In this document: positions 213 to 36,308 of the stretch, piece by piece
How positions within the stretch are numbered: position 1 is the stretch's first letter
How the letters are laid out: the number at the start of each line of letters is the position of its first letter
Sequence record: MH051911
Reading direction: 5' to 3' (one strand)
Length of the DNA stretch: 50,354 nucleotides
Source of the DNA: Enterobacteria phage vB_EcoS_IME18
Translations under genes and position numbers: made by a program
The notes under the pieces: model-generated
Database searches by the model: none
Told to the model about the DNA's origin: nothing
The model's input: only the letters and a program-made list of their open reading frames with translations

Positions 213-689
213 TTACAGTTGATGCAACTGAACCTCAACAAGCTGAATATCTTTGTATTTAGTCCAGCCGCCAGCGTAGGTCCAGGTTGTTTCGATCGTG
301 CCATCAGATTTCTCTTGACCATCAACATCAAGTTTAACGGCAGAGCCGAAAGTTGGTGCTTCGGTGGATTTGGAAAGCATCCATACTCGGCCTGAAGTCA
401 TCACGTTGATAGCGCCGCCATCTTCGTAAATCATCTGATTTTGAGCGTTAACAGTCTGCCAGTGAGATCGGATTGCCACGCCGTAAGGAGTGGTTCCGGT
501 AGTAAGAGCCTTAACCAACTTATGACCATCAACCGCCTGAGCTTGAACAACTTGTACGGCAGCGCCAACAAGAACATCACCTTCATTAACGACACAAGCG
601 CCGTCAATATTGTACTTTGAAGTATCCGCAACCATACCCGGAAGCGCAATCGCCATATCTCGCTGATAAGATGCATTAATTTGTGCCAT
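213..689 (-). CDS. putative head decoration protein (lambda gpD-like position), paralog of junction gene
   Basis: ORF with SD AAGGAGAAA; located between scaffold and major capsid genes as gpD is in lambda; shares TPYG...SGRVW motifs with junction ORF. Confidence 0.55.
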   Translation of the reverse strand: MAQINASYQRDMAIALPGMVADTSKYNIDGACVVNEGDVLVGAAVQVVQAQAVDGHKLVKALTTGTTPYGVAIRSHWQTVNAQNQMIYEDGGAINVMTSGRVWMLSKSTEAPTFGSAVKLDVDGQEKSDGTIETTWTYAGGWTKYKDIQLVEVQLHQL

Positions 690-700
690 GATATTTCTCC

Positions 701-1813
701 TTACATTACTTTGCTTAAACGTGAATTTGGCGTAACAGGAGCGGCGTCGTTTTTCTCTTCCGGCTTGCCACCTTCGATAGAGTCGCCTTTTACTGCTTTA
801 CGCTGAATAGCCATGATATCAGAATCTTTAGCAACATCAAACATAGCGTCGATATATGCGTCTGATTTTTCGCTAACATCTTTATCAAGCATGGCTTTAA
901 CTACGGCAATCTTGACGTCTTTGATATCAAGACCATCATGTTTGACACCTGCGGTTTCTGCTACTGCGGTAACTTCTGCGCGTGCGGCGGCATCAGCTTT
1001 TTGCTTCTCTACTTCAGCCTTCACAAGTTCCGGCAGAGAGTCAACCTTAACCTTCAGCGCGTCGCGTTCAGCTTCGAAGCCATCAGCCTTGCCCTGAATG
1101 GTGGCAATCTGTGCGGTTAATTTTTCGATGTGGTTCGCAACGTCTTCGGTTACTTCCACATCAACGGAGTCGATCTTGATTTTTTTCATTTGCTTGTCCT
1201 CGTTAGTTGATTGAACGTTATTATAATACGGAAATTCCTGTTCAGCATCAAGGTTTAATTTAGCAATTCCAGCACGACCCTTGAAAACTAGTGCGATATG
1301 GTTGACCTTGATATTAGTCTGTACCGCGTCAAATTTCACCCAGCCTTCCGGCGGCGCTTCGTCCTGTTTCATATCCTCTTCGAAGATATATTCTCCAGTC
1401 TCATTTGAACCCCAGCCGGGCTTATCAATATCTACCGACGTATACCCTACAGATAATTCCCCGGCCTCCTTCGCTTTAGCCTTGCTGATCGCGTAGTCGC
1501 TGTAAATACTCAAAGGAACTTCAACGCCAACCCCTGAAGCAATACCAGCGCCAGCACACGATCCGACAACAACGTCCTTAGCATTTTGGGGAGTCACCGT
1601 TACGTGACCGACTGTGATCGGCTTGCCTGCAAAACTTTGCAAGGATTCTTGCTTGAAAACTTCGGACGCCGGACGGAACTCAACTCTATCGCCGTGCGGC
1701 GTTTTGTAAACCTGAGCGCCGATTCGCGCCACGATTGGGCGGTCAACTAAAAAACCGTTATCATCAAAGTGCGCCTTGATTTTTACTGAATCGAATCTTT
1801 GCTTTGCCTTCAT
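701..1813 (-). CDS. putative prohead protease/scaffolding protein
   Basis: Start reassigned to ATG 1811-1813 with SD AGGAG; C-terminal coiled-coil-like Ala/Glu/Lys-rich region; position between head morphogenesis and decoration genes. Confidence 0.55.
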   Translation of the reverse strand: MKAKQRFDSVKIKAHFDDNGFLVDRPIVARIGAQVYKTPHGDRVEFRPASEVFKQESLQSFAGKPITVGHVTVTPQNAKDVVVGSCAGAGIASGVGVEVPLSIYSDYAISKAKAKEAGELSVGYTSVDIDKPGWGSNETGEYIFEEDMKQDEAPPEGWVKFDAVQTNIKVNHIALVFKGRAGIAKLNLDAEQEFPYYNNVQSTNEDKQMKKIKIDSVDVEVTEDVANHIEKLTAQIATIQGKADGFEAERDALKVKVDSLPELVKAEVEKQKADAAARAEVTAVAETAGVKHDGLDIKDVKIAVVKAMLDKDVSEKSDAYIDAMFDVAKDSDIMAIQRKAVKGDSIEGGKPEEKNDAAPVTPNSRLSKVM

Positions 1814-1815
1814 TT

Positions 1816-2577
1816 TTAATCTCCTGTAGAAAAGTCTGGAACAGCCCAACAGCGGCAATTGTATTCCTCACCCGGGAATACATGATCGGAATCTACCGCT
1901 ATGCGCTTACCTTCCCATCTTACATGTTTTTCACGTTCGCGTAAATCCATCACCCCGCGCCAGAAATAGTAAGATACACCAGCGTCTTTTATGCGCTGCC
2001 GCATCAGTCTACTGTTCCATGTTCCGACAATTCCCGACGCCCTGTTTTTGGCCCAGCTTCGGTAAATACCAAATCGCTCCTTAGCCAGTTCAACAACAAA
2101 ATCCTTGCTTTTACCCTGACCGGATGCCGCACGAAGTTTATCAGTGAAATCAGTAACCATGTTGGCGGCAAATTTCCTGATAGAAGTAGTCACCTGCGAT
2201 CGCCACAGATTATATTGTCCTGAGTACCAGCTTTCGGCGGCGGTAGGACCAATCAGGGCAAGTAGCATAACGGCTTGATTCTTCTTACCTCCAGCATTGC
2301 GAGCGATACGCAGCCACTGCTTAGAGTTGAATTTATAGATCGTGAGCGCAACGGATGATAGAGAACCAATAATCGGAGCGATGAGTGATTCAACGTAATC
2401 AAGCAATGACCTTTCTGTCTGATCTATCTCTTCGTCAGTGGCGTCAAATTTCATCGGCTTTAATTCGTCACGCATTTTTTCAGTTAGTTTGGCTGCAACA
2501 TCCTGTAGGGAGCGCGACATTGCGCGCTCGCTCATTTCAGGATAGCGCCACTGTGTTGCAACGCCATTAATTTTCAT
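1816..2577 (-). CDS. head morphogenesis protein (SPP1 gp7 / Mu F-like minor head protein)
   Basis: 253-aa ORF directly after portal gene; sequence pattern typical of Mu F family (recalled, not searched). Confidence 0.65.
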   Translation of the reverse strand: MKINGVATQWRYPEMSERAMSRSLQDVAAKLTEKMRDELKPMKFDATDEEIDQTERSLLDYVESLIAPIIGSLSSVALTIYKFNSKQWLRIARNAGGKKNQAVMLLALIGPTAAESWYSGQYNLWRSQVTTSIRKFAANMVTDFTDKLRAASGQGKSKDFVVELAKERFGIYRSWAKNRASGIVGTWNSRLMRQRIKDAGVSYYFWRGVMDLREREKHVRWEGKRIAVDSDHVFPGEEYNCRCWAVPDFSTGD

Positions 2578-12612: not shown

Positions 12613-12627
12613 TAACAAAAAGTGCTA
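12613..12627 (-). promoter_or_regulatory. palindromic box (promoter-associated)
   Basis: TAACAAAAAGTGCTA; TATAGT 22 nt downstream on minus strand. Confidence 0.6.
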
Positions 12628-12816
12628 TTCTTTAATTTCGAAGCAATCGGTGTCTTCGTCGAATATCCAGGGGTCGCCGTTATCATCAAGTAATGAGATA
12701 TTCCCGAAGCTGGTTAGCGATGCACTATAAGGCTTGTCAACGGTAAAGCACTCTTTAACTTCCTCGTAATCACTGCCTTTGAATACTGCAATCATTTGGT
12801 GCATAAAATCAGCCAT
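12625..12816 (-). CDS. hypothetical protein
   Basis: 63-aa ORF. Confidence 0.4.
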   Translation of the reverse strand: MADFMHQMIAVFKGSDYEEVKECFTVDKPYSASLTSFGNISLLDDNGDPWIFDEDTDCFEIKE

Positions 12817-12825
12817 TGTTAAATC

Positions 12826-12999
12826 CTATTCGCAAGTGATTTCATTTGATGTGATTGGTAGCAATACGTTACCAACCATCACGAAAGTAGTAACCTGGTT
12901 CCCGGTTTCATTGCATCGCTCTTTGACCTCGTCGCAGCCGGACACTACCAGGATAGCCAGGGCGACAGCCGCCATCATGCAGATCAGAATGCGCATCAT
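12826..12999 (-). CDS. small lipoprotein, hypothetical
   Basis: Start reassigned to ATG 12997-12999 (SD GGGAG); signal MMRILICMMAAVALAILVVSGC with lipobox-like VSGC. Confidence 0.45.
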   Translation of the reverse strand: MMRILICMMAAVALAILVVSGCDEVKERCNETGNQVTTFVMVGNVLLPITSNEITCE

Positions 13000-13106
13000 T
13001 CGAACGCTCCCGCACACAGTAGTAACATGATTACGATCCCAACAATGGCATGACCCATGCAGAAGAACCAGACGGCAGACCATAGAGCTATTGTATTGAA
13101 GTTCAT
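12996..13106 (-). CDS. small hydrophobic peptide (36 aa), hypothetical
   Basis: ATG overlaps upstream stop (ATGA) and its stop overlaps lipoprotein start; predicted membrane peptide; not in ORF track. Confidence 0.3.
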   Translation of the reverse strand: MNFNTIALWSAVWFFCMGHAIVGIVIMLLLCAGAFE

Positions 13107-13330
13107 TTTAGTACCTCGATCTTGTTGTCGCCGATTGAGTTTTCTACTACCGATTGCGGGTCGTCTCCAGGGACGCGCATGTAGAAATTACTCACTGCTG
13201 TGAAGTTCCATTGACCTCGCCACTTGAAATATAATCCGTGTTTTGCGCCCTTCGCGTAATGAGTGGATTTAGCAGGGATCATGTGCCCGTTGACTCGGGT
13301 CAGTTTGGTTAGGTTACTGTAACGTGGCAT
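13103..13330 (-). CDS. hypothetical protein
   Basis: 75-aa ORF with SD GAGGA. Confidence 0.5.
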   Translation of the reverse strand: MPRYSNLTKLTRVNGHMIPAKSTHYAKGAKHGLYFKWRGQWNFTAVSNFYMRVPGDDPQSVVENSIGDNKIEVLK

Positions 13331-13600: not shown

Positions 13601-13666
13601 GGTGATTCCTCTGATTGGCATCTCGTTTCAATGGTGTAACTATATCAAGATACCCCGATCCGGTTT

Positions 13667-13681
13667 TAACAATTCGTGCTA
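13667..13681 (-). promoter_or_regulatory. palindromic box (promoter-associated)
   Basis: TAACAATTCGTGCTA; TATAGT 22 nt downstream on minus strand. Confidence 0.6.
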
Positions 13682-14149
13682 TTTGGTGAGATATTTCACA
13701 CGGCTTCCGGCAGTCTCATTCCAGCCATCCTCAAAGAATACGCTATAGCAAGTTGTCGAACGCTGGCGAACCTTCGACACAGTGCGCCACACTTTACGGC
13801 CCGAGTAACCAGTCAGCACACGCATCCCTGGCAACAACTCACCAGACTTTCTCACCTTAATGGCAACATCAGCATCAAGCTCGAACGACTCAAGATAGAC
13901 CGGGTTAATCATATTGCACATGCGGCGCTCTTCGTGCTCATCTGCCCACTCGCAGCCATTGTTCGTCTTGATAGCTCCAATGAAGCAACCCAGTTTTTCA
14001 GTAAGTGAGCCTGCGCGGTATGAGTTGATATCGATGACCGTGTAATGGCTATACATATGCCAGTGCAATCCGGTTTTGTGCTCAAACGCGAAGAATGACA
14101 TTTCGCCATCAACCTCATCTTTAGCCAGAAATACGGTAATTGTCGTCAT
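13679..14149 (-). CDS. hypothetical protein
   Basis: 156-aa ORF; stop TAG inside box. Confidence 0.55.
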   Translation of the reverse strand: MTTITVFLAKDEVDGEMSFFAFEHKTGLHWHMYSHYTVIDINSYRAGSLTEKLGCFIGAIKTNNGCEWADEHEERRMCNMINPVYLESFELDADVAIKVRKSGELLPGMRVLTGYSGRKVWRTVSKVRQRSTTCYSVFFEDGWNETAGSRVKYLTK

Positions 14150-14151
14150 GA

Positions 14152-14346
14152 TTAAGCCTCGGAAAAATAAGTGTTAAATCCTTTGAGTTTGTAGTCGCTG
14201 CCGACGCGCACCACGTTCCAGGTAAGACCAGAGTGATACGCAACCATATCCTCAAGGTCGATCGTGATTTCGGTTCCCTTCTTGAACAGACCCTTTTCAT
14301 GAGTTGAGTCTCGCTGAACAACCACTACGTCAATTTGCGTTTCCAT
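14152..14346 (-). CDS. hypothetical protein
   Basis: Start reassigned to ATG 14344-14346 with SD AGAGGA. Confidence 0.45.
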   Translation of the reverse strand: METQIDVVVVQRDSTHEKGLFKKGTEITIDLEDMVAYHSGLTWNVVRVGSDYKLKGFNTYFSEA

Positions 14347-14406
14347 CTTTGTTTCCTCTGTATCGTGTCGATGAAAAGATAATACCCGATCCGCTCGACC
14401 GGGATT

Positions 14407-14421
14407 TAACAAAAAGTGCTA
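14407..14421 (-). promoter_or_regulatory. palindromic box (promoter-associated)
   Basis: TAACAAAAAGTGCTA; TATTAT 22 nt downstream on minus strand. Confidence 0.55.
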
Positions 14422-15207: not shown

Positions 15208-15611
15208 AATATACCCTCTTTGTCTATTCGTGTGTAAATGGTGTCATAATGTGTCAACAATTGCCATTGTGACATTGCGATGTAGAGCTGTCAATGCCTG
15301 CGAGCCAATTTTAAGCCGTGTAACATTTGTCTAGCTGTCTAGAGTCACTATAGAAATATATAGCTCTCAAAAAAGTACTGTATATATAAACATGCAGATA
15401 GAAATATGCCAACAGTACGCCAGACAATGTAAGACAACTATACACAACTATTACAATATAATTATCTATATATATAAATAAAAAAAACACTATATATATT
15501 ATATAGATACATATATCTATATGTATATTTAGAGGCGTCACAGTGTGTAATTTTGTCACAAGTGCGATTCTAGACAAATATTACATCCGTGACAAGTTAA
15601 AGTGTAATCGA

Positions 15612-15626
15612 TAGCACTTTTTGCTA
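15612..15626 (+). promoter_or_regulatory. palindromic box TAGCA-N5-TGCTA
   Basis: TAGCACTTTTTGCTA inside control region; no good -10 at +22. Confidence 0.4.
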
Positions 15627-15816
15627 AAAATGGAGATGACTACCAGGCGAACTGGGCAACACCAGATCATCCCTCTCACAATCATTGCAATCTCAGCAAC
15701 AAATCAACCAACTGTTGCACACCATGCAATAATCACGTTTCATCATTTGCAATCAATCGCAATCAGAATTATTCCACCTATTCCGATATTGATGGAATAA
15801 TGAGCAATTATTGGAA

Positions 15817-15831
15817 TAGCATTTTTTGCTA
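15817..15831 (+). promoter_or_regulatory. palindromic box (promoter-associated)
   Basis: TAGCATTTTTTGCTA with TATGGT-like hexamer about 22-23 nt downstream; upstream of 15895 gene. Confidence 0.45.
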
Positions 15832-21643: not shown

Positions 21644-21667
21644 AGGAGGCTTACGCCTCCTTTTTTT
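21644..21667. terminator. bidirectional intrinsic terminator between convergent genes
   Basis: Stem AGGAGGC/GCCTCCT, loop TTAC, T7 run on plus and U-rich on minus; overlaps last codons of spanin gene. Confidence 0.7.
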
Positions 21668-22055
21668 CGTACTTACGAATTGAAAAATAAACCATCAACA
21701 GGCCAATAAAAACGAGAGTCCACCCTACAATTGCATCGTACCAGTTCCCATGTTTTGTTACCGTGATGTTTTCAGCGTTAACCGTATTTGCCTGAATGGT
21801 TGACACCTCCACAGACTTATTGACGGATGAGTCAACCTTGCCAATATTTGAGTCACTCACCTTCACCTCTCGCTTATCCTCTGCCTTTGCTGTAACTCCT
21901 GCTAGTTGTTTCGTGTTCTCAGCGCCAACCTGCGCCGTAACATCCGGGGAGTCAGAAAGTAAACCGCTCAGAGCAGATGCCGTCGAGCAACCGGATAGAG
22001 AAATAACACCAACAGCCACTGTAATCGCAATGCACGTTTTCTTCAGTTTCATCAT
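21651..22055 (-). CDS. unimolecular spanin (lipoprotein signal plus C-terminal TM)
   Basis: N-terminal [23 protein letters not shown] lipobox and C-terminal hydrophobic [13 protein letters not shown]; last gene of lysis cassette. Confidence 0.6.
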
Positions 22056-22540
22056 AATTCCTTAACGCAATACGCGTATTCTTCAGTGCGTCGGTTCTTG
22101 AGTCCTCTAGACACTTCTCGCTTTTTGGTTTTTGGGTTGTAGTAGTATACCCATCGCCATAACTGATTGCACGCTTCCTTGTGCTTACTCTGATTTATTA
22201 GCTTAAGCATTGTAGAAGATCCGAACGCGCCAGTTCCAACGTTGAAAGTGAAGCTGTACAGTGACGCGCGCATCGTTACCGGAATATCAACATTCACCTT
22301 TTTGTCAACGTATCGCTGAGCGACGCCGATATGTTTTATCAGCAATGCATCGCATTCTCGCTTAGTGTATTTCTTACCAGGTATGACGTCCGGCCCGGTT
22401 ATTCCGCTGCATACGGTAGGGACTCCGGCTATATCGTAATACACCTCGTACTCTATACCTTCGATTCGTTCAAGTAGGGTAGGTGTCAACGTCAAAGCAG
22501 CCCCGATCGATGCGCCTATAACGTTATTTTTTAAGCTCAT
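22052..22540 (-). CDS. SAR endolysin (GH24 lysozyme)
   Basis: Lysozyme motif [17 protein letters not shown]...G; weakly hydrophobic Gly/Ala-rich N-terminal segment; ATGA overlap with holin. Confidence 0.75.
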
Positions 22541-22755
22541 TATCTCCCCCTGATCTTAAGCGCCTTATTTAGATCGCCATCGTTTAACGCTTCCTGAATT
22601 GCCTTACTATCACGATACTTCCAGTATGCACCCCAGGCACCAAAAAGCAGAAAGCAAATGAATGTAGCGCCAGCAATATAAAGTTGCCCGGTAGCGGCCC
22701 CGACTAATGAAGCACCGCCCGTGCTTGACGTAGCTGCTGTTAAAAATTCTTTCAT
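22540..22755 (-). CDS. holin (pinholin-like)
   Basis: Start chosen at ATG 22753-22755 (SD GGTGAG); two hydrophobic segments; immediately upstream of endolysin. Confidence 0.55.
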
Positions 22756-22873
22756 AATCTCACCATATATTTTTTGAACAAGTGAGTCGATTTTAACCTT
22801 CAAATTTACTTGATACAACGCAAAAAGGCCAGCATGTAAATCATGCCAGCCTGTAAGGTGATGAATGATATTG

Positions 22874-23050
22874 TTAATCTATCGCAATAAATTCCAGATA
22901 GCTACCGTTCAGAGGAGTCTGAATTGCTGAACCTCGCCCGTCGTAAATCTCAAATAATCCCCCACCGAAATCATAACCAACACTATAGATCTGATTTACG
23001 CGGAATGGAAGTGTTTTGGAGTCATTTCGGATGCACTTAACTCGCTTCAT
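22874..23050 (-). CDS. hypothetical small protein (58 aa)
   Basis: ATG 23048-23050 with SD AAGAGGA; not in ORF track. Confidence 0.4.
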   Translation of the reverse strand: MKRVKCIRNDSKTLPFRVNQIYSVGYDFGGGLFEIYDGRGSAIQTPLNGSYLEFIAID

Positions 23051-34510: not shown

Positions 34511-35037
34511 TGCGTTTATCTCCTTCGTTTACGATGAATCCATTATAGCCATTAACAGCGTTTAGTCAATCGAATACATGTAATTGGTGTGTAATTGCGT
34601 GTCTATATTGCTCAAGTTACAACCAGCATCAGCAGAATCAATGTCTTAAGTCGATTTTTATGCGATGTCTATTGCGTAACACTTGTAACCGCTTTTTCTT
34701 AGAAATACACAGATATCCATGAATAGAATCCCGATCGATTAAATTTTGAACATATATGATAGAAATTTGACGAATCAATCAAATCACCTGTTACACGATA
34801 GACAACTGTTACACAACAATAATTATATATATAAAGCTAAAATTAAATATTATCTATCTATATATATTATATAGAGTTTTTATCATATCTCCCTGCGGTC
34901 GGATGGGATCGATTTTGTAACGCCATCTCAAGTTACAAAAATAGACACCTGTTACACGAAAAAAATTGTAATCGAGCTATTGCAATAAAAGTAAACGCGA
35001 CATACAATGCAATCACACTAACGACGAGGACATGCAA
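34511..35037. promoter_or_regulatory. second AT-rich divergent control region, partly homologous to 15208..15894
   Basis: No ORF; shares exact 18-bp CTATATATATTATATAGA and a GACAACT(G/A)T(T/A)ACACAAC segment with region 1; repeated CACCTGTTACACGA and CTCAAGTTACAA. Confidence 0.5.
34980..35008 (+). promoter_or_regulatory. sigma70-type promoter for lipoprotein gene (-35 TTGCAA, 17 bp, -10 TACAAT)
   Basis: TTGCAA 34980-34985 and TACAAT 35003-35008, about 30 bp upstream of ATG 35038. Confidence 0.5.
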
Positions 35038-35265
35038 ATGAAAAAGTTAATCACCATTATCGCTGCGGCATTCATCCTGACTGGTTGCTCATCGATGCCT
35101 GAGCGCACTTGCACGGCAATTTATGAATCAGGCGGCGCGGAGTACTCGGTTTACGTTTTTGGATCTAAGATGCGCGGAAAGGAGATGGTATTGCGTGCTG
35201 GATACCCATTCTCCTTCAACTATGTATCAGAGAAAAACTTCAAATCTCACGATTGCTCGATATAA
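35038..35265 (+). CDS. Cor-like superinfection-exclusion lipoprotein (putative)
   Basis: 75 aa with signal MKKLITIIAAAFILTGC (lipobox LTGC); SD GAGGA; next to tail fibre/J genes where cor sits in T1/phi80-like phages. Confidence 0.45.
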   Translation: MKKLITIIAAAFILTGCSSMPERTCTAIYESGGAEYSVYVFGSKMRGKEMVLRAGYPFSFNYVSEKNFKSHDCSI

Positions 35266-35288
35266 AAGAAAAGCCCCGCAAGGGGCTT
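35262..35288 (-). terminator. intrinsic terminator after distal tail genes
   Basis: Stem AAGCCCC/GGGGCTT, loop GCAA, A-rich run on plus side (U-run on minus transcript). Confidence 0.6.
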
Positions 35289-35976
35289 AGTCGTACGCTG
35301 TCGTTTTGATTGCTGTTATAATATTTCCATTATTTGTGGTGTTCATTATCTGACCCGCCGCAGTGGTTGCTGCTGCGTTTATTCTCGTTGTGCTCCCATT
35401 GTACCTGCATGAACTGCCTGCTGTTGAGTTTCCTATTATGGGTTGCCCAGTTGGCAGCCTGCCAATAACAACTTGATAGTTGCCAAGTATAGTTGGAACA
35501 ACTGCGTAGCTTCCGCTGAGTGTTGTGTCTATGTTTAATCCGCCGCCAGCGTATCCAGGAGTGCCAATTGTAACCAAATCACTAAGAACTTTTGTCTCAT
35601 TTGTCAGCACTAGCTTTCCTGACGCATCCCATATCGCCATACCCCAGCTCGGTAGTGACTGCTCAAATATGGCAAATATGTAATATGTTAGTGTGTATGA
35701 TTGGTTTGCTGGATTTGTCCCCCTTATATAAACAGTTCCAACATTGGGTCCGCTTCTGAAAGTAAAGGCTGAAAGCGCGGTCCCCTGTTGCGTACTTGTT
35801 GTTTTGCAAAAAGCTATAACCGGAACACCTGTAGGTATCCGAACATATCTCTCCGCAACCTGTGAACCACTAACATTTACTGATTTAATTTCCCCTCTCG
35901 CATATAAAGCGAATGGCGTGGATAACGGGGTTATGAATGGGTTTCCGTTTACATCTATAAAAGCACCGTATGACAT
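35287..35976 (-). CDS. putative tail fibre / receptor-binding protein
   Basis: 229-aa Gly/Thr/Asn-rich ORF immediately downstream of J-like gene. Confidence 0.45.
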   Translation of the reverse strand: MSYGAFIDVNGNPFITPLSTPFALYARGEIKSVNVSGSQVAERYVRIPTGVPVIAFCKTTSTQQGTALSAFTFRSGPNVGTVYIRGTNPANQSYTLTYYIFAIFEQSLPSWGMAIWDASGKLVLTNETKVLSDLVTIGTPGYAGGGLNIDTTLSGSYAVVPTILGNYQVVIGRLPTGQPIIGNSTAGSSCRYNGSTTRINAAATTAAGQIMNTTNNGNIITAIKTTAYD

Positions 35977-36308
35977 TAATCATTCTCCAGATATGCTATT
36001 AAGTAACAGTTTGATGATGGGTGCACGTTTGGCCCAGGTGAGTTTGCTGGCGTTACTGTTATCGTATTGCCGCTAGCAATAATTTTCCTGCCAGGTCCGC
36101 TAATGGCGCCATCGTCAAGGCTTATAACGTAGTTCACACGCATACCAGGTGGTACTTGATAGCTGAACGATGCTGAATTCTGGCCTGCTGACAAAAAGCT
36201 CCAACCAACAACCGTGACAGGCTTAATTCCATAGTTATTATAAACGCCATTTGCGTCCCAAGTTGATATACCGTACGCCATAATAAATCCTCCAAAAGAA
36301 AAGGGCAT
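35976..36308 (-). CDS. putative tail protein
   Basis: 110-aa ORF between J-like gene and distal fibre gene; start/stop overlap. Confidence 0.4.
   Translation of the reverse strand: MPFSFGGFIMAYGISTWDANGVYNNYGIKPVTVVGWSFLSAGQNSASFSYQVPPGMRVNYVISLDDGAISGPGRKIIASGNTITVTPANSPGPNVHPSSNCYLIAYLEND

Follow-up and report, generated by a model that had tools for sequence, protein, structure and literature searches.

What might two tiny overlapping genes contribute to a phage that keeps a complete lysis cassette elsewhere in its genome? We addressed this question in Enterobacteria phage vB_EcoS_IME18 (MH051911), whose sequence of 50,354 nucleotides is referred to here as the window. The original prediction, made from the letters alone, had described a 36-amino acid hydrophobic peptide and a 57-amino acid lipoprotein in an early island of small genes, and had suggested that they might form a superinfection-exclusion or receptor-masking module. 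Both ORFs, here called g36 and g57, are indeed present on the minus strand, as a hydrophobic peptide and a lipoprotein precursor whose reading frames overlap in an ATGA sequence (Table 1).

The g36-g57 locus of T1-like phages and its conservation

The 2-kb stretch around g36 and g57 is matched by 71 phage records, which are named after Escherichia, Shigella and, in a few cases, Citrobacter. Those records that we opened belong to Tunavirus (Drexlerviridae), and the window represents a T1-like phage. The early location that had been proposed for the pair is supported: both genes belong to the early small-gene region, and their counterparts in phage T1, ORF73 (1992..2102) and ORF72 (2099..2272), both lie within the annotated 2.8-kb terminal repeat of that phage. 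Both T1 ORFs are annotated as 'hypothetical protein', and our literature search found no functional study of either. The equivalents in the T1-like phage KanT1 (111 and 171 bp) are still hypothetical in a structure-informed annotation of 2026 (PMC13164509, Table S1).

Table 1 Positions of the features discussed in the text, numbered along the window
Feature	Position	Strand	Description
g36 (T1 ORF73 homologue)	12996..13106	-	36 aa, MNFNTIALWSAVWFFCMGHAIVGIVIMLLLCAGAFE; phrog_25570, E 3.6e-27
g57 (T1 ORF72 homologue)	12826..12999	-	57 aa, MMRILICMMAAVALAILVVSGCDEVKERCNETGNQVTTFVMVGNVLLPITSNEITCE; phrog_8628, E 4e-28
g75 (T1 ORF74 homologue, DUF7274)	13103..13330	-	soluble basic 75-aa protein; PF23939, E 1.7e-39
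Lipobox codons 19-22 of g57, Val-Ser-Gly-Cys	12934..12945	-	from alignment and codon comparison
Predicted beta-hairpin of g57, residues 29-56	12832..12915	-	AlphaFold2
Shine-Dalgarno-like GGGAG	13007..13011	-	8 nt 5' of the g57 ATG, within the last g36 codons
Shine-Dalgarno-like GAGGT	13113..13117	-	upstream of the g36 ATG
ATGA overlap, g36 stop/g57 start	12996..12999	-	from sequence
ATGA overlap, g75 stop/g36 start	13103..13106	-	from sequence
Holin	22540..22818	-	listed start TTG, 92 aa
SAR-type endolysin	22052..22540		lysis cassette
u-spanin	21651..22055		phrog_1819-type 'Rz-like spanin' match, phrog_1804, E 4e-44
Cor lipoprotein	35032..35265	+	phrog_1119, E 3.6e-30; lipobox LTGC, Ser at +2
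'Membrane associated' cor-cassette protein	35287..35976	-	downstream of 1139-aa gpJ
'Outer membrane' cor-cassette protein	35976..36308	-	downstream of 1139-aa gpJ

The lipobox rule that we used calls for a positive n-region, an uncharged h-region, a lipobox of the form [LVI][ASTVI][GAS]C and a cysteine at position 15-35. It matched eight distinct ORFs of the window, five of them in non-coding frames, and mononucleotide shuffles gave 2-9 matches; the pattern by itself is not above chance. It is because of their conservation, not because of the lipobox, that we regard g36 and g57 as real genes. Pairwise dN/dS in the annotated frames was 0.07 for g36 and 0.12 for g57. Four of the other five frames gave values above 1; the fifth, an antisense frame that shares its third codon positions with the gene itself, gave 0.27-0.28. 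A 516-nt block that spans g75, g36 and g57 has zero indels across 15 related loci with 83-91% nucleotide identity. Gene lengths do not vary among these loci, and none of the 15 has lost either ATGA junction or either Shine-Dalgarno motif, the motif of g57 at the junction reading GGAG or GGGG in each of them. Together with the PHROG families that the two proteins match (Table 1), this comparison of related loci shows that g36 and g57 are real and under purifying selection. A longer version of g57, an 85-amino acid ORF starting at 13083, was rejected, as its N-terminal extension falls in a g36 frame with dN/dS above 1.

By tblastn, g57 was present in 53 phage records and g36 in 54, all of them from T1-like phages of Escherichia or Shigella (Tunavirus), in which the two genes always occur together with the ATGA overlap. 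The module is narrow in distribution. Among the apparent exceptions, SA32RD carries an intact pair that is partly hidden by the low-complexity filter, EF3-1 has a frameshift in a G-run, and the copy in vB_SsoS_008 is degraded; frameshifted or truncated copies also occur among metagenomic variants.

The two genes are probably translationally coupled, g36 appears to be part of an operon and to be translationally coupled within it, and the pair would be expressed early. A promoter and terminator scan found no promoter-like site near g36 or g57 on either strand, the nearest one on the plus strand being at 13666. Rfam matched no RNA element at the pair. In a type I toxin-like reading, g36 would have its own promoter and an antisense RNA regulator, possibly an sRNA of a kind that the Rfam and promoter scans do not detect. 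Farther along the window, an intergenic region of ~600 bp (15208..15826), at which genes diverge on both strands, holds five clustered minus-strand promoter-like sites. It is likely the control region for the leftward early operon that includes g36 and g57; the overall number of promoter-like sites in the window is not above shuffled expectation.

The lysis cassette was found where it had been predicted, at 21651..22818, and consists of a holin, a SAR-type endolysin and a unimolecular spanin (u-spanin). Two further observations concern this cassette. The PHROG holin profile covers only residues 22-92 of the holin ORF, whose true start is, judging from this coverage, probably the internal Met22. 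Directly upstream of the holin gene, a minus-strand ORF (22874..23050) encodes a 58-amino acid DUF7244 protein, which is probably the stand-alone SH3-like component of the lysis module discussed in PMC13164509.

Lipoprotein signal, predicted hairpin and relatives of g57

The lipobox-like VSGC that had been pointed out in g57 agrees with a PS51257-type rule, with Arg3, uncharged residues 4-21 and Cys22, and a g57 homologue is already named 'Lipoprotein' in UniRef. Residues 1-21 make up the predicted signal peptide, with Cys22 as the putative lipid acceptor, and the mature part has 36 amino acids and a net charge of -4. The lipobox cysteine is kept in 20 of the 23 family sequences and in all aligned distant homologues, and we infer that g57 is lipidated at Cys22. 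Variant lipoboxes were also seen: VSGF in DELF2 (Cys22 to Phe), VSVC in SH6, VSCC in a sequence designated P0017, and ILSY in the metagenomic variant P0020, which is without a lipobox. They may be either sequencing errors or a sign that lipidation is not strictly required.

The residue at position +2 of the mature protein bears on sorting in E. coli. Most relatives have Gly there and some have Ser or Val, while Asp is seen in this window only. The codon is GAC here and GGA, GGC or GTG elsewhere, a single change of the GGC-to-GAC type. In E. coli, Asp at +2 is a Lol-avoidance signal, and Glu at +3 strengthens retention in the inner membrane (PMC5727369). Given its mature Cys-Asp-Glu, g57 of this isolate should stay on the inner membrane, a location that may be limited to this isolate; relatives with Ser or Val at +2 should, by the same rules, be sorted to the outer membrane in E. 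coli. With the +2 residue varying among relatives, the location may differ across the family.

The AlphaFold2 models of g57 from two runs both begin with a signal helix and continue into a single long beta-hairpin, whose strands comprise residues 29-42 and 45-56. The mean pLDDT was 70 with the Tunavirus alignment and 74 after the addition of three distant homologues, and the block of residues 41-50 reached 90; as the alignment is shallow, the hairpin is a prediction of moderate confidence. Its open end holds Cys29 and Cys56, so a disulfide between these two residues is probable in the modelled structure. Gly43, Pro48, Ile49 and Cys56 are invariant in 23 sequences, the three distant homologues included, and Cys29 is nearly invariant. 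The distal half of the hairpin is hydrophobic (VTTFVMVGNVLLPI) and the proximal half is polar. A profile search of solved structures with g57 gave one chance-level match, and Foldseek against PDB and BFVD returned nothing at E <=0.001, the best match among solved structures having an E of 3.9. Lipoproteins of Streptomyces phages were among the top BFVD rows of the Foldseek search, with E 0.2-0.6.

An exhaustive profile search of 1.84 billion representatives gave only seven matches to g57. One of them (P0026) is repetitive and was set aside as spurious, and three were borderline, with E about 6e-4. These three are lipoproteins of 58-65 residues, encoded on contigs of 57-69% G+C, and share a layout of lipobox Cys, short acidic tether, Cys, the motif TTYVMVGKVMVPI and a C-terminal Cys. 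All three match both phrog_8628 (E 2e-9 to 7e-5), the family of g57, and its sister family phrog_15073. The match of P0024 to phrog_8628 is confined to the mature part (E 1.3e-6), and when P0024 was used for a reciprocal tblastn search against all phages, the Tunavirus genes came first. Consistent with this, hhalign of the Tunavirus alignment against that of the high-GC and Streptomyces-phage proteins gave a probability of 97.6% and an E of 3.6e-12, with the three Cys positions in register. The sequence P0023 led to 20 Streptomyces phage records, including those of Rowa (gp47), Conan (gp68), Vanseggelen and Endor1/2; in the three Streptomyces phages that we inspected, the homologue lies amid small genes beside nucleotide-metabolism genes. 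A scan of genome contigs with the high-GC homologues found no relative. By these alignments, g57 is a member of a superfamily of small phage lipoproteins that comprises phrog_8628 and phrog_15073. Streptomyces are monoderm and have neither an outer membrane nor FhuA; whatever part of the function is common to the whole family would therefore be exerted on the outer side of the cytoplasmic membrane or within the wall.

We also observed, on a low-GC viral contig of IMG/VR (L025, 3899..4225, plus strand), a 108-amino acid lipoprotein (phrog_6716) that has the hairpin motif shared by g57 and its high-GC relatives, TTYVMAGKVMVPIT, without the bracketing cysteines and with an extra C-terminal domain. 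The motif may be a module that is reused in larger phage lipoproteins.

The membrane peptide g36 and the neighbouring genes

g36 has a GRAVY of 1.62 and no basic residue, its sole charged residue being the C-terminal Glu. It is predicted to be a single-pass membrane peptide, long enough for one span and with an orientation that is not predictable. All 15 loci share Trp9, Trp13, Cys16, Gly18, His19, Cys31 and a CAGAFE at the C-terminus, so that g36 is under more constraint than a generic anchor would require. Pfam and NCBIfam gave no match for g36. When g36, g57 and four neighbours were scanned against Pfam, NCBIfam and PHROGs, the matches were limited to unnamed PHROGs and to DUF7274. No paralogue or mimic was found when mature g57 and g36 were searched against the window by tblastn.

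Is g36 tied to g57, or to the gene upstream? DUF7274, the family of g75, occurs in 358 phage records, mostly of Klebsiella phages, and in the two relatives outside Tunavirus that we inspected, KarlJaspers and KLPN1, g36 and g57 do not lie downstream of it. By this distribution, g75 is context and not an obligate partner of the pair. The absence of the pair beside DUF7274 outside Tunavirus thus points to a Tunavirus-specific insertion, with g36 as a lineage-specific companion. Taken together with the broken copies mentioned above, the absence of the pair from other Drexlerviridae that keep g75 indicates that g57 is dispensable, which would fit an accessory, competition-type function. One of the high-GC contigs (L020) encodes a 41-residue membrane peptide directly upstream of its g57 homologue, with a 4-nt overlap, and this peptide has no similarity to g36. 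In the two other high-GC contigs and in the three inspected Streptomyces phages, the upstream neighbour is without a membrane-spanning stretch. That g36 and g57 interact is a guess.

Other genes of the region deserve mention. An 86-amino acid ORF (14152..14412, minus strand) matches PF25180, 'Phage antiviral trigger protein Gp54' (E 1.7e-35), and is homologous to Gp54 of Bas11, which belongs to a set of two phage proteins that an immunity protein recognizes (PMC11578894). In KarlJaspers, a Gp54 homologue lies directly upstream of the DUF7274 gene. Just downstream of g57, the minus strand encodes a very acidic 63-amino acid protein (12625..12816) that is under strong purifying selection (dN/dS 0.07) and is missing from T1, where homology ends at the g57 stop codon. 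In Conan and Vanseggelen, the second gene after the g57 homologue likewise encodes a small, very acidic protein. The 63-amino acid protein could be an anti-restriction protein of the DNA-mimic type, or the parallel with the Streptomyces phages could be coincidental. In EF3-1, the homologue (461..928) of the window ORF at 13679..14149 is annotated as 'tail assembly chaperone'. Given that this homologue is one of the early small genes and that PHROGs give a single strong match for it, to a family without an assigned function, the label is probably a mis-annotation.

Candidate functions of the pair and comparison with known systems

We suggest that the two genes form an accessory envelope module that is specific to Tunavirus and belongs to the early small-gene region. 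g36 would be a 36-residue peptide embedded in the membrane. After export, g57 would receive a lipid at Cys22, and cleavage by signal peptidase II would yield a 36-residue lipopeptide, consisting of a 6-residue charged tether and a 28-residue beta-hairpin with a hydrophobic tip, the hairpin probably being closed by the Cys29-Cys56 disulfide. In this window, Cys-Asp-Glu would hold the lipopeptide at the inner membrane, on its periplasmic side. There the hairpin on its tether, which g36 might hold or position, would bind some component exposed on the outside of the cytoplasmic membrane, and this binding would block the passage of DNA from a second infection across the inner membrane, complementing the action of Cor at FhuA. 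The conserved lipobox, the homologues in phages of monoderm hosts, the Asp at +2 and the separate Cor point to the outer face of the cytoplasmic membrane as the site of action, and not to the masking of FhuA. Blockers of DNA entry at the cytoplasmic membrane have precedents in the Ltp lipoprotein of phage TP-J34 and in gp15 of HK97, and the Ocr-like antirestriction gene near the g57 homologue of Conan also speaks for this reading. Points against it are the Gly, Ser or Val at +2 in most relatives, the altered lipoboxes of DELF2 and P0020, and the lack of an upstream membrane peptide beside most of the homologues inspected outside Tunavirus. Post-adsorption exclusion at the cytoplasmic membrane is our first choice among the readings considered here, which we rank in the order in which they follow; it is a tentative choice, and the exclusion function in particular is guessed.

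The same location would also suit a takeover of the host envelope, in which the hairpin, with or without g36, inhibits or redirects a host machine exposed on the outside of the cytoplasmic membrane, for example one for wall synthesis, division or transport. The benefit would go directly to the infecting phage, and other phages would not be excluded. The early position and the presence of homologues across diderm and monoderm hosts suggest a common target, for instance the peptidoglycan or division machinery, and the dN/dS of g36 suggests a specific interaction and not a generic anchor. There is a precedent in gp56 of SPO1, an early product that is a small membrane protein and blocks division. 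However, the g57 gene is dispensable and patchy, and our Pfam, NCBIfam, profile and structure searches found no similarity to any known effector; we consider a takeover rather unlikely.

A more general proposal, to which we also give little credence, spans these two readings. g57 and its relatives in Streptomyces phages might represent an undescribed class of minimal effectors, in which a disulfide-closed hairpin of ~30 residues, anchored by lipid at the outer face of the cytoplasmic membrane, binds by strand addition to a beta-sheet of its target and so blocks DNA entry or disables a conserved envelope machine, in diderm and monoderm hosts alike. In this proposal, the T1-like phages would have recruited a dedicated membrane partner of 36 residues.

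Counter-defence, in which the module would neutralize a membrane-anchored abortive-infection or exclusion system of the host, strikes us as improbable. The accessory region also holds the homologue of Gp54, a trigger of CapRel (PMC11578894), and the g57 homologue of Conan lies three genes downstream of an Ocr-like antirestriction gene; however, what these points describe is the gene neighbourhood and not the module itself.

Receptor masking, the other function originally suggested, would require a lipoprotein that is sorted to the outer membrane and there blocks FhuA or another receptor in the manner of Cor or T5 Llp. The pair is limited to Tunavirus within the phage collection, and the Tunavirus phages T1 and KanT1 use FhuA (PMC13164509). 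The cysteine layout of g57 is also the same as that of the window's Cor, and most relatives have a residue other than Asp at +2. The suggestion was nevertheless not borne out, as the genome already has a full Cor cassette of its own (Table 1). That cassette lies beside the tail-tip genes, an arrangement reported for T1-like phages (PMC13164509). Cor itself adjoins gpJ, whereas g57 lies ~22 kb from Cor in the early small-gene region, away from the tail-tip genes and in this respect unlike cor (PMC13164509). BLASTP gave no alignment between g57 and Cor, g57 has no match to phrog_1119, and hhalign aligned the 15 lipobox columns alone, with a probability of 42%. The absence of a significant fold match among solved structures, the Asp+2/Glu+3 of this window and the homologues in phages of Streptomyces, hosts without FhuA and without an outer membrane, likewise argue against receptor masking, which we regard as highly improbable.

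We place equally low the idea of an auxiliary role in lysis or its timing, with g57 as a lipoprotein like the colicin lysis proteins, g36 as an antiholin-like peptide, or the pair as a spanin remnant: the 36 amino acids of mature g57 are within the size range of colicin lysis lipoproteins, g36 is small and hydrophobic as some holin or antiholin fragments are, and g57 matches NCBIfam 'spanin2' weakly (E 0.06, residues 5-37, largely signal peptide), but the pair lies ~8.6 kb from a complete holin-endolysin-u-spanin cassette and is grouped by gene order with the early genes, g57 has no match of any kind in Pfam (E up to 1) and, apart from the weak one to 'spanin2', none in NCBIfam to the spanin, colicin-lysis, entericidin or superinfection-immunity families, and g36, hydrophobic nearly throughout its 36 residues and without a periplasmic domain, cannot be an i-spanin. 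The pair therefore fails as a two-component spanin, in agreement with the original view that it is not the spanin of this phage. As far as sequence and profile comparisons reach, g57 is shown to be unrelated to Cor and to spanins.

The ORFs had been annotated as hypothetical and a lipoprotein call exists in UniRef, so the observation itself is not new. What is new is the predicted architecture of a hairpin lipopeptide, the homology of T1 ORF72 to lipoproteins of Streptomyces phages, the Asp+2 variant of this isolate and the case against receptor masking. The link between T1 and Streptomyces phages offers a comparative handle on a family that has been 'hypothetical' since the T1 genome record. 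If the post-adsorption block is true, T1-like phages would carry two layers of exclusion, with Cor at the receptor and the pair at the inner membrane. Whether an exclusion or a takeover effector, g57 would share neither fold nor family with Cor, Llp or Rz1, and its hairpin lipopeptide would be among the smallest phage envelope effectors, easily synthesized and studied. If there is no phenotype, the locus is one more conserved pair of small accessory genes.

How does the pair compare with known systems? Cor (of T1, phi80, N15 and HK022) and T5 Llp are, like g57, small phage lipoproteins encoded by accessory genes of FhuA-using phages, and their cysteines are placed alike, one of them close behind the lipid Cys and one near the C-terminus. 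They have no sequence relation to g57 past the lipobox, and mature g57, with its single predicted hairpin, has 36 amino acids as compared with 59 for the window's Cor. Unlike Cor, which is encoded separately, g57 belongs to the early region, carries Asp at +2 in this window and has homologues in phages of monoderm hosts. The pair resembles the Rz/Rz1 spanins in that a small lipoprotein gene overlaps a membrane-protein gene, and the T1 u-spanin gp11 in its SGC lipobox, but it differs from spanins in its position outside the lysis cassette, in the lack of a periplasmic domain in g36 and in the lack of a spanin family match.

Ltp of the Streptococcus thermophilus phage TP-J34 and gp15 of HK97 are anchored in the cytoplasmic membrane and act after adsorption, as we propose for g57. 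Compared with g57, Ltp is far larger, helical and produced by a prophage, and the resemblance of Ltp and gp15 to g57 concerns the proposed mechanism alone. By contrast, the phrog_15073/phrog_8628 lipoproteins of Rowa (gp47), Conan (gp68) and Vanseggelen are, by the alignments described above, true homologues of g57. They differ from it in having 24-43% identity, no adjacent membrane peptide (in the three phages inspected) and monoderm hosts, and they have in common with it a layout of lipobox Cys, short acidic tether, Cys, a hairpin of ~26 residues, Cys and a short tail.
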